Notes under the pieces: generated by a model
What the model was told of the DNA's origin: nothing
The model's database searches: none
What the model saw: the letters and a program-made list of their open reading frames with translations, nothing else
Assembly (NCBI RefSeq): GCF_028641065.1
Contig: NC_073401.1
Coordinates: 24,304,001 to 24,368,000, forward strand
Length of the DNA stretch: 64,000 nucleotides
Direction: 5' to 3'
DNA from: Leucoraja erinacea
Lineage: Eukaryota
Made by a program: the position numbers and the translations under genes
Shown: positions 51,506 through 61,700 of the stretch, in pieces
Layout: every line of letters starts with the position of its first letter
Numbering within the stretch: position 1 is the first letter of the stretch

Positions 51506-53305
51506 ACTTGCTGAGCGGTGTGAGAGGGGTAGGTGAATACGAGGTCAAGTGTGTGGGGTGTTGAATATGGAATGGCGAACGATAAGAAATAAAGGGACGA
51601 GTGGGATCAGTAGAAAATTGGAAGATGCTGTTGTGGGATTACAGAGACATGACTGCAAGAGGCCCCGGGTTGTGTACTGCCTATTCAAGGGTTCTAAACT
51701 TCCTGTCAGAAAAGACAGACAGGTGCGCAGAGGGGTTGGGGTAGTAGCTGTTGGTAAGGAATGAAATGCAAGGGGGTGGTGACATGAAACAGGAGATGGG
51801 GGAGTCAGTATGGATAGAAACTAAGGAATTGTAAGGGTAAAAATACCCTAATGGGGATTATCTACAGGCCCCCAAACAGTAGCTCTGAATATAGGGTGCA
51901 GTTGAAGCAGGAGTTAATATGGCCTGTAGTAAAGGTGAATGCCACGGTTGTTATGGGAGATTTCAACATGGCAGATAGACGGGAAACAAATCAGGTTGGT
52001 ACTGGACCCATGAAAAGGGGAGTTTGTGGATAGTGCCTCAAGTGATGGATCCTTAGGGATAGCTGTGTATTGAGCCTACTAGGGAGAAAGCAATCCTGGA
52101 TTTAATGTTATGTAATGAACCGGAATTGATAAAAGAACTTGAGGTTAAGGAGCCATTAGGAGTAATGACCATAATATGATAAGTTTTTTTAATCTACAAT
52201 TGGAGAGGGAAAAGGGAAATCGGAGGCATCAGTGTTACAGTTGAATTAAGGGGACTTTGGAGCCATGAGAGAGGAGCTGGCCAAAGTTGACTGGAAAGAT
52301 ACCCTAGCAGGGATGACAGTGGAACAACAATGGCAGGTATTATACAATAATACAATACAATACAATGTATTTGTCATTTGAACCCCATTGAGAAATGTTG
52401 TTTCTGCAGTCATACACACAAGAAAGATCCAAGACACAACACAATTTACACAAACATCCACCACAGCACAGCGCATTTCCTCCTCGCTGTGATGGAAGGC
52501 AAAGACTTCTCTCCCCTGCACTCTCCATTCCCCTCCCGATGTCAGAGTCAAAGCCCCCTGCGGGCGATGGTAATTGTCCCGCGGCCATTTACGCCGCGCC
52601 GGGTGATGCAAGGCCGCGCTCCGGGTCTTGTTGTTGGAGCCCCCGGCGGGTGCTAGCAAAGTCCCTCAGCCAATCCAAGCCGCACGGGGCGATGATGTAA
52701 GGCCCCGCTCCAGGTAATCTTCAACCCCACAACTCGGGCGGGTGAAGTCGCCGTTGCGGAAGCCCCGAAAAGCGGTCTCCCAGCAGGGACCCGCGGTGTT
52801 CCTGTCTGGCAGACCTGTGGTTGGAGCCTCCGAATCTCCGGGGTCGGGTCGCAGCAGCTCGCCACCACCGCTCCTCCCGCTCCAAACTCGGCCAGCTCCA
52901 TGATGGTGAGTAGGTCCACAGGCTCCGCGACTGGAGCCCCAGGTCGTTCCTGCTGGAGGACGCACCACGGTGCTAGGCCCCAATGACAACGGAGACCCGA
53001 CAGAGAAAAAGTCGGGTTCTCCATGCAAGGGATAGATTTTTAAAGTTTACCCCACCCCCCACACACATACCCACACACATACACAAAAAAATAAATAAAA
53101 ACTACATTCAAACGAGACTAAAAATAATAAAAAGACAGACGGACTGCAGACGCCGCTGCGACGTTAGTCGCGCCGCCCACTGATTATTCTAGGAATAATA
53201 CAGAAGGTCCAGGATCAGTTCATTCCAAAGAGGAAGAAAGGTTCCAAGGGGAGTAAGGGGCGACCGTGGCTGACAATACCGATACCAGCGTATCGGTATT
53301 AGATA

Positions 53306-58747: not shown

Positions 58748-61700
58748 TGATTAATTTGCAGGAGTGATCACTGGTGGAAGAGCAATATATTTTGCTGCAC
58801 AGAAATTCAATTTGAGCTTATTTTCACTCAATAGTCACTAAAATGGATATTAATGTTTAAGAAAGAACTGCAGTTGCTGGAAAATTGAAAGGTAGACAAA
58901 AATGCTGGCGAAACTCAGTGGGTGAGGCAGCATCTATGGAGCTAAGCGATCTTACGGGTCGAGACCCTTCTTCAGATGGATGTTAATGTTCTCTCATCAA
59001 TTCTAATTCACTGGGTGCTTGGGTTTAAAGTCTTTATTTGTATTTCAGTACAAATTTGTCGCTTAATCAGCTTGGCATAATTGTAAATTGGCCCTCGTGT
59101 GTGTAGGATAGTGCTAGTGTGCGGGGATTGCTGGTCGGCGCATCCAACATCCATGGAACCATGCAGCAGCTGTGAAGCACAAACTCCCCCCTCCCACTCC
59201 CACACTGACCTTTCTGTCCTGGGCCTCCTCCATTGTCAGAGTGGGGCCAAACAAAAATTGGAGGAACAGCACCTCATATTTCACTCGGGCACGGGGAGGG
59301 GAGCAGACCAGGGGACGGGGAGGGGAGGGGAGGGGACGTGGAGGGGAGGGGAGGGGAGGGGAGGGGAGGGAGAGGGAGGGGAGGGAAGGGGAGGGGAGTG
59401 GAGGTAGAAGATAACTTTAAATTGCTGCTCAATCAAGGTTCATGCTGTGATTTGTAAGCTATCCCAGCGAAATATCAGGTGCTGTTCCTCCAAATCACTG
59501 TGGCCCCACTCTGCCAAATGGAGGTGGTCAGGACAGAAAGGTCAGGACCGGTCCCTGTAATCTGCCTATCAAACATCCCCTACATGTATCCACCTCTCAC
59601 TTGCCAGGGTTTGCCCTCCACCTCTCCAGCTTTCTCCCTCCCAACCACAATCAGTCTGAAGAAAGGTCCCAACCAGAATCTTCACCTAACCATGTTTTCC
59701 AGAGATGCTGCCTGATCCGCTGAGTTACTCCGCGCACTTTTTGTCTTCCTTTTCATAACCAGCACCGGCTGCAGTTTCTTGTTTTCTCCCTTTGAACCCA
59801 CTAGGTTTCTTCATCTGTAAATGTGGCTCCACAATCACTGTCATTACCATTCTGTTCTGTAGGTCTTGGGGATGACCAAACTCACACTGTTCTCTACTAC
59901 GCTCCCTGTGTCTCCAGTCCACCCCCTTTGTACGTGTGAGTCTAATCCACACAAGCTTCCAGAGGAGGTCGTTGAGGCTGGGACTGTCCCATCGTTTTAA
60001 TGACAGTTAGACAGGTACATCGATAGGACAAGTTTGGAGGGATATGGACCAAGCGCAGGCAAGTGGGACTAGTGTAGCTGGGACATTGTTGGCTGGTTTG
60101 GGCAAGTTGGGCCGAAGGGCCTGTTTCATCACTGTATCACTCTATGACTTTATGTGGGTGAGAGGTGAGGTTTCTACTTGGGAGTAAGGGTTAAACAGTC
60201 AGCTACGATGTAAGGAAATCTAACAACTCCGCCACATCCGCTGCATTAATCTTCGTTCATCCATTATAATCCAACTTCTGCTGATAAAACAACCAAAAGA
60301 CTGATTATTGCTATTTACCAAACCCAGCAATTCAAATGACACCATGTTTCAGGAAGTGTTCCAATGGCCATTGGCGATACCACTTCTTTACATTCCATGA
60401 GTCGAGCGATTCGTAACCAAATGTGTGCGTTTGTATTTCATGAGACAAAGGCTGCTCTTAACTGTAACCACATTAAAATAATTTTTAATCTTTTCAAGAG
60501 ATGTCCCAATCAAGAAGAGCAGTTTGAACAGCAAAGTGGAAGTTTTACATATGGTTCAGCTGCCGGAAGAAGAGGATAAGTTCTGTGGTTGTGAACGATT
60601 GCAGCAGGATCTGGATCGATTGACCAGGTGGACGGAGGAATGGTTGATGGAATTTAATGCAGAGAAGCGTGAGGTGTTGCATTTTGGGACGTCAATGTAC
60701 CTATCTAACTGTCACTAAAACGATGGGACAGTCCCAGCCTCAACGACCTCCTCTTGAAGCTTGTGGGGATTGGACACACATGTACAAAGGGGGGGGGTCT
60801 GGAGACACAGGGAGTGTAGTAGGGAACAGTGTGTGTTTGGTCATTCCCAAGACCTACAGAACAGAATGGGAATGGCCGTGATTGTGGAGCCACATTTACA
60901 GATGAAGAAACCTAGTGGGTTCAAAGGGAGAAACAAGAAACTGCAGCCGGTGCTGGTTATGAAAAGGAAGACAAAAAGTGCGCGGAGTAACTCAGTGGAT
61001 CAGGCAGCATCTCCGGAAAAACATGGATAGGTGAAGATTCTGGTTGGGACCTTTCTTCAGACTGATTGTGGTTGGGAGGGAGAAAGCTGGAGAGGTGGAG
61101 GGCAAAGCCTGGTGAGTGATAGGTGGATACATGTAAGGGGATGTTTGATAGGCAGATTACAGGGACCTTCCTGACCTTTCTGTCCTGGGCCACCTCCAAT
61201 GGCAGAGCGGGGCCACAAGTGATTTTTCGCTGGGATAGCTTACAACTCAGCAGCATGAACATTGATTGACTAATTTTAAGTTATCTTCCACCTCCACTCC
61301 CCTCCCCTCCCCGTCCCCACTGGGGTGTAAGCTGCCCGAGCGAAATATGAGGTGCTGTTCCTCAAATCTGCGTTTGGCCCCACTCTGACAATGGAGGAGG
61401 CCCAGGACAGAAAGGTCAGTGTGGGAGTGGGAGGGGGGAGTTTGTGCTTCACAGCTGCTGCATGGTTCCATGGATGTTGGATGCGCCGACCAGCAATCCA
61501 CGCACACTAGCACTATCCTACACACAGTAGGGCCAATTTACAATTATGCCAAGATGATTAAGCGACAAATTTGTACTGAAATACAAATAAAGACTTTAAA
61601 CCCAGGCACACAGTGAATTAGAATTGATGAGTGAACATTAACATCTATCTGAAGAAGGGTCTCGACCCGAAACATGGCTTAGCTCCATAGATACTGCCTC

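Follow-up and report, generated by a model that had tools for sequence, protein, structure and literature searches.

The window analyzed here (64,000 nucleotides of the little skate, Leucoraja erinacea; assembly GCF_028641065.1, contig NC_073401.1, forward-strand positions 24,304,001 to 24,368,000) contains three phospholipase A2 (PLA2) genes, one in each of the paralogous units 1, 2, and 3. We consider it probable (about 0.6) that an array of nonautonomous Helitron transposons occupies the unit 3 counterpart of a target site that is empty in units 1 and 2, and that this site was split by an inversion of ~7 kb that flipped the unit 3 PLA2 gene. The transposon is ordinary for this genome, and the value of the locus lies in the base-resolved inversion of a PLA2 paralog: the ancestral sequence is preserved in two empty paralogs, which allows a vertebrate inversion at Helitron ends, with its repair scars, to be followed at single-base resolution.

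The empty A|T target lies on the minus strand in both unit 1 (25936..25954) and unit 2 (36503..36521), and its 19-mer (ttattagata|tgattaatt) was found only at 25936 and 36503. An earlier reading of this DNA from its letters (the sequence-only reading) had recognized this site, had placed it ~620 bp upstream of the PLA2 start codon (we counted 623 bp to the minus-strand ATG in unit 1), and had located tattagata at 53297 and tgattaatt at 58748 on either side of an insert in unit 3; all of these observations were reproduced. Its further proposal, a simple 5.4-kb insertion between intact flanks, held on the right side only. The sequence from 58748 matches unit 1 at 117 of 120 positions, whereas the sequence at 53297 provides nine exact bases and then 51/120. 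The true left flank is found at 42001 on the opposite strand, where it directly abuts another CTAG end (41997-42000) and runs on into the unit 3 PLA2 gene. This proximal upstream region of unit 3 (42001..42631, plus strand, inverted relative to units 1 and 2) begins with 60 exact bases and matches unit 1 at 117/120 positions (596/618 aligned columns), and the distal upstream region, which carries the right half of the target (58748..60693, minus strand), has the same orientation as in units 1 and 2. In the assembly, 16.7 kb separate the two target halves, which have opposite orientations and each still touch an exact Helitron end. The unit 3 gene is found together with its proximal upstream region 11 kb to the left, in inverted orientation, and the flanks at 58748 and 42001 reconstruct the empty site exactly. 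The 9-bp match at 53297 can represent no more than a target relic that was duplicated at an inversion breakpoint, and if the family had a strong TATCTAAT preference at its 3' flanks, such a match would be ordinary.

The element is very likely a nonautonomous Helitron1 transposon (HLE1, as defined in PMC11417382; see also PMC4778049), a group already reported in L. erinacea. The minus-strand termini described in the sequence-only reading (5'-TC, CTAG-3', and an exact CTAG|TC junction at 55244/55243) were all confirmed. Both intact 5' ends (58747 and 55243) begin with TC, with an A preceding it at 58747, and CTAG closes all three distinct 3' ends (53306, 55244, and 42000; the end at 53306 reads CTAG|T), a fourth lying within a false duplicate. 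A search of the window with the 28-base 3' end returned four copies, i.e., those at 53306, 55244, and 49084, plus one on the other strand ending at 42000. The CTAG end at 49084 was rejected as a genuine fifth insertion, as it sits within a contig-end overlap. The outer ends carry no target site duplication (TSD), as had been claimed, and a comparison of the first with the last 30 bases revealed no terminal inverted repeats (TIRs). Insertion at A|T without target duplication is seen at one site, with its empty counterpart in two paralogous units; together with the termini, this supports the earlier assignment to nonautonomous Helitrons with an A|T target. HLE2/Helentron elements were rejected, for which a T|T target and short TIRs would be expected; here the target is A|T and there is no TIR. 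The insert was said to encode neither Rep nor helicase, and indeed none of its 39 open reading frames (ORFs; ≥70 aa) matched Pfam, in a scan whose sensitivity is limited for short fragments (a CR1 reverse transcriptase fragment at 57051-57929 was also missed) and whose sole outside control, CR1 ORF1, was matched. The proposed 3' hairpin fared less well: all copies of it are degenerate, with perfect stems of only 3 to 4 bp, and when the terminal 60 nt of each of the three 3' ends were folded, none folded significantly better than shuffled sequences (z scores of -0.17, -0.51, and +1.21).

In keeping with this assignment, the HELIANO supplement lists 11,154 HLE1 insertions in L. erinacea, along with two RepHel-encoding HLE1 families from the thorny skate (PMC11417382). 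These families (Helitron-1_AmRa and Helitron-2_AmRa) and the little-skate HLE1 insertions come from the same or a sister species and belong to the same group as the element described here, and they likely represent the source of RepHel. Contigs from four of four runs, with four organism labels and 72,000 to 190,000 contigs per run, covered 30 of the 30 bins of the segment 53120-55345, which fits a repeat family; these are 4 of the 24 runs listed, the coverage falls mostly on the CR1 piece, and the summed depths are no copy numbers. The 19-base 3'-end pattern had no matches in viral_contigs, and its three matches in metagenome_contigs, which have ≤20 bases in common with the window, were taken as chance and set aside.

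The sequence-only reading described the insert as a dimer, but it holds three monomers (A, B1, and B2), the second half being two monomers fused by a deletion; the supposed dimer is at least a degraded trimer. The monomers follow one plan. Read from the 3' end, a terminus of 25 bp is conserved and the subterminal region next to it varies; a G/A tract comes next, then a CR1 3' fragment that is cut at the same place in the monomers, and finally a 5' part of 540 bp. Throughout, we take segments to be CR1 or short interspersed elements (SINE) from sequence features and not from a repeat-library call; Pfam support is confined to an SGNH-type domain at 40433-40969. Monomer A (1938 bp; 53306..55243, minus strand) includes the 5'-TC part, the CR1 3' fragment (54072-54559), the G/A tract, an A-type subterminal region, and CTAG. 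Monomer B1 (55244..56244, minus strand) has its 3' end, G/A tract, and CR1 fragment, and its 5' part is deleted. Monomer B2 (56245..58747, minus strand) has an intact 5'-TC at 58747, has lost its extreme 3' end, and hosts a younger CR1 piece (56972-57878) nested within its CR1 fragment. The deletion that fused B1 and B2 at 56244/56245 removed the 5' part of B1 and the last ~24 bases of B2. A further, 5'-truncated monomer at the true left flank (C; 40940..42000, plus strand) has a 3' end of the B1 type from which ~53 bp are deleted, and terminates in CTAG (41997-42000); its C/T-rich tract joins CR1 ORF1 at ~40940, and a 155-bp CR1 3' piece (41353-41507) and a C/T tract follow. If the hairpin arm retained by A is combined with that retained by B1 and C, the two would form a stem of 7 bp that stops 12 nt short of the terminus. 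A side observation concerns the CR1 fragment of monomer A, which contains a multi-copy segment of ~187 bp (54540-54726) between near-identical 13-bp flanks; this segment was skipped by contigs in four of four runs.

Between A and B2, the 5' parts show 96% identity, the same value as between the unit 1 and unit 3 flanks. The CR1 fragments of the monomers are 90 to 92% alike, and their 3' subterminal regions differ. A and B1 have 11 CR1 columns in common, compared with ≤3 for any of the 14 other pairs, but for 9 of these 11 columns, the comparison was limited to three young CR1 copies with 96 to 98% identity, and the count is inflated. B2 has both of the two shared columns covered by its head piece, and C has neither of the two that it covers. 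Helraiser circles are described as carrying an exact head-to-tail CTAG|TC joint (PMC4778049), and the sequence-only reading had, on such a joint, proposed one rolling-circle dimer between intact flanks at 53305 and 58748. Besides the joint, the 96% identity of the 5' parts favors that proposal; against it stand the 51/120 match of the left flank, the real flank and gene at 42001 in inverted orientation, and the three monomers with differing 3' regions, and we consider it extremely improbable. More generally, one round of rolling at the site should yield near-identical monomers, and a single rolling-circle concatemer made at this site is unlikely, because the 3' subterminal regions differ despite the exact CTAG|TC junction and the CR1 fragments are only 90 to 92% alike.

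We propose instead that the array derives from a nonautonomous HLE1 family of ~1.6 to 2 kb, composed of a 540-bp 5' part, a captured CR1 3' fragment of ~490 bp, a C/T-rich tract, and, at the 3' end, a hairpin followed by CTAG, which would be mobilized in trans by a RepHel encoded elsewhere. An element would have taken the A|T site ~630 bp upstream of the unit 3 PLA2 gene after unit 3 split from units 1 and 2, and the head-to-tail array A-B1-B2 would have been built from monomers that already differed. This could have occurred via a composite donor formed by 3' read-through or by insertion of a copy at the A|T that arises where the flank meets the first T of an older copy, and both routes should yield the same CTAG|TC joint. 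A deletion and the nested CR1 insertion would represent later decay of the array.

The inverted segment measures ~7.1 kb when the false duplication is discounted (11.3 kb as assembled), and both of its ends carry scars. A 22-bp inverted duplication, to which the Helitron end contributes 13 bp and the target flank 9 bp, has its left copy at 41988..42009 (minus strand) and its right copy at 53297..53318 (plus strand); the chance of its eight free target bases is 2e-5 to 1e-4. The right breakpoint lies at 53276, where a CR1 ORF2 fragment (53178..53276, plus strand) is broken. The filler between this broken CR1 and the 9-bp target relic is a perfect palindrome with 11-bp arms and a 4-nt loop (53275..53300), the only such palindrome in the window besides its false-duplicate copy. 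Shuffled windows gave 5 counts in 12, so the palindrome is unusual in its position at the junction, not in its occurrence. Past 53276, 158 contigs of run X17 continue the CR1 with other letters; the continuation of the broken CR1 was not found at this locus, and the only local matches to the filler were two of 7 bases nearby, which are uninformative.

These scars could be explained by a break or stalled fork at the junction of the 3' end and the target that was repaired in two ways. The gene-side end would have paired with the 3' end of the opposite-facing monomer C (13 bp identical, 22/25 alike), and the element-side end, still bearing 9 bp of target, would have folded back, copied 11 nt, and joined the broken CR1. 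The outcome would be a flipped segment of ~7 kb with the gene, a 22-bp duplication at both ends, and 631 bp of ancestral upstream DNA kept by the gene. Yeast break repair is reported to generate short fold-back inverted duplications with 0 to 5 bp of microhomology (PMC11724301). The fold-back insertions described there at double-strand breaks resemble the skate case in the short inverted duplication and the microhomology of ~2 bp, whereas the skate case marks one end of a kilobase-scale inversion and belongs to a vertebrate germline.

A second trace of template switching is found at the junction of units 1 and 2, where a 199-bp insert (30158..30356, plus strand) is 98% identical to 57760-57958 of B2 and crosses the internal CR1/CR1 joint of B2. 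Since B2 extends beyond the 199-bp piece on both sides, B2 or a sister copy probably served as the donor. The insert is joined to the unit start via a 4-base microhomology and forms a 119-bp perfect inverted repeat with 30368-30486. This insert bears on an alternative with the same element and inversion, in which monomer C would be the original 3'-most array monomer at the target and a replication fork would have switched template three times (from the CR1 at 40940 to the G/A tract of C, from 53276 to the target, and from the end of C to the end of A). Template switching within the cluster is attested by the insert, C sits exactly on the A|T site with a B1-type 3' end, its G/A tract shares 13-mers with A (35) and B2 (29), and its absent 5' part would arise in the same event. 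However, a third switch or a later deletion is required, C is without the two CR1 variants common to A, B1, and B2, and its CR1 piece is 95.9% identical to a free young CR1 versus 90.5% to A or B1. We regard this course of events as doubtful.

A different alternative attributes the inversion to assembly error: misjoining of reads within G/A tracts and CR1 pieces would have produced it, and unit 3 would in truth be collinear around one Helitron array. The published little-skate assembly was built from noisy long reads with Hi-C scaffolding and gap filling at a heterozygosity of 1.6% (PMC10115646), and the window presumably belongs to it. A 100-N gap lies at 51406-51505, and the preceding contig end (47304..51405) is a probable false duplication of 51508-55500, with many indels and identities of 84 to 100% in its first half and 64 to 74% beside the gap; as a contig overlap, it would add ~4.2 kb to the locus. 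The noisy reads, the gap, and the 4-kb false duplication within the segment speak for such an error, and no bridging piece was seen among those listed. Against this, the three junctions are exact to the base and bear biological marks (i.e., the 22-bp duplication and the filler). The contigs that flank the gap overlap, and they agree on the orientation and on the CR1/filler/A junction (100% identity of 49007-49257 to 53229-53479), and the C junction, the unit 3 gene, and the CR1/filler/A junction are all in one contig. The inverted gene is 95% identical to those of units 1 and 2 and is therefore not a fold-back of unit 2. We consider an assembly error unlikely.

Two independent Helitron insertions in opposite orientations, both having TATCTAATA directly after them by chance or target preference, with ectopic recombination inside the elements, form another possible origin of the inversion. 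Inversions are known to arise when inverted transposon copies recombine ectopically, and Helraiser is reported to favor AT-rich DNA 3' of the insertion site (PMC4778049). This origin is very unlikely in view of the chance of the eight free bases (≤1e-4); in addition, instead of a clean target, the sequence flanking 53305 consists of palindromic filler attached to a broken CR1, and no plus-strand 5' end was found to the left of 42000.

Several points weigh against the array-and-inversion reading that we prefer. No piece bridging a junction was found among the 32 pieces listed (contigs from four runs), and no loose end fell at any Helitron terminus among the 24 loose ends listed (4666 more exist). 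The assembly, made from noisy long reads with gap filling, contains a false duplication within the segment that is inverted; all three 3' ends have a weak hairpin; and the absent 5' part of C requires an extra deletion or template switch. The inflated count of shared CR1 columns belongs here as well, and the 96% identity of the A and B2 5' parts would also suit duplication at this site. Finally, the mechanism rests on one locus.

If the array-and-inversion reading is correct, the full-length unit 3 PLA2 paralog retains only 631 bp of its ancestral upstream region, which predicts a regulatory change. A more far-reaching interpretation is that RepHel cut the 3' end of the array and transferred the strand to the end of a second copy, such that the inversion would be an aberrant rolling-circle transposition and the same array templated the unit 1/unit 2 junction. 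We advance this only tentatively and think it rather improbable. If true, Helitron ends would actively drive rearrangement in the skate PLA2 expansion, parting a paralog from its distal upstream DNA, and the locus would represent a rare natural case of Helitron-driven chromosome rearrangement.

Compared with known systems, the skate element resembles HLE1, Helibat, and Helraiser elements (PMC11417382, PMC4778049) in its 5'-TC, CTAG-3', A|T target, lack of TSD and TIR, and exact head-to-tail junction. In the skate element, the 7-bp stem combined from the arms of different copies would lie ~12 nt before the terminus, close to the position of the 19-bp palindrome of Helraiser, which is described as lying 11 nt from the end (PMC4778049). 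Unlike HLE1 and Helraiser elements, the skate element has a decayed hairpin in each copy, and a fixed CR1 3' fragment forms part of its monomers, as does a G/A tract. Helitron arrays reported from Xenopus contain 2 to 7 monomers of 121 to 1,996 nt, a few of the arrays coming from a Helitron1 family (PMC12001565); in contrast, the skate monomers are heterogeneous, and their array borders an inversion breakpoint.

The PLA2 genes of units 1 and 2 lie on the minus strand and match XP_055511527.1 and XP_055511528.1, respectively (151 aa each). The unit 3 gene (42632..44034, with ATG and stop taken from the sequence) is on the plus strand, opposite to the other two, and matches XP_055511215.1 (151 aa); for its exon at 42744-42925, a Leucoraja erinacea protein matches at 100% identity. 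The PLA2 cluster is expanded in skates, with at least six proteins on one little-skate chromosome and at least five PLA2 clusters on one chromosome of the thorny skate. A literature search found no paper on tandem phospholipase A2 in Leucoraja or skates and no title on this locus or family, within a scope that excluded subscription journals, Repbase, and Dfam. Units 1 and 2 (21519-30159 and 32069-40726) are 98.2% alike, near the reported heterozygosity of 1.6%. With PLA2 proteins that diverge by ~11% in exon 3 and a templated insert at their junction, the two units are more likely real paralogs than haplotypes. At 60709-61752, the PLA2 distal upstream region recurs in inverted orientation (93%), head-to-head with the distal region of unit 3 and cut off by a CR1 end at 61752. 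This copy may belong upstream of another plus-strand PLA2 paralog beyond the window. A 111-aa PLA2 paralog (XP_055511217.1) is annotated on the same chromosome. At the other side of the window, 4204-5495 and 5541-6828 form a direct tandem duplication of 1.3 kb with 97.7% identity.

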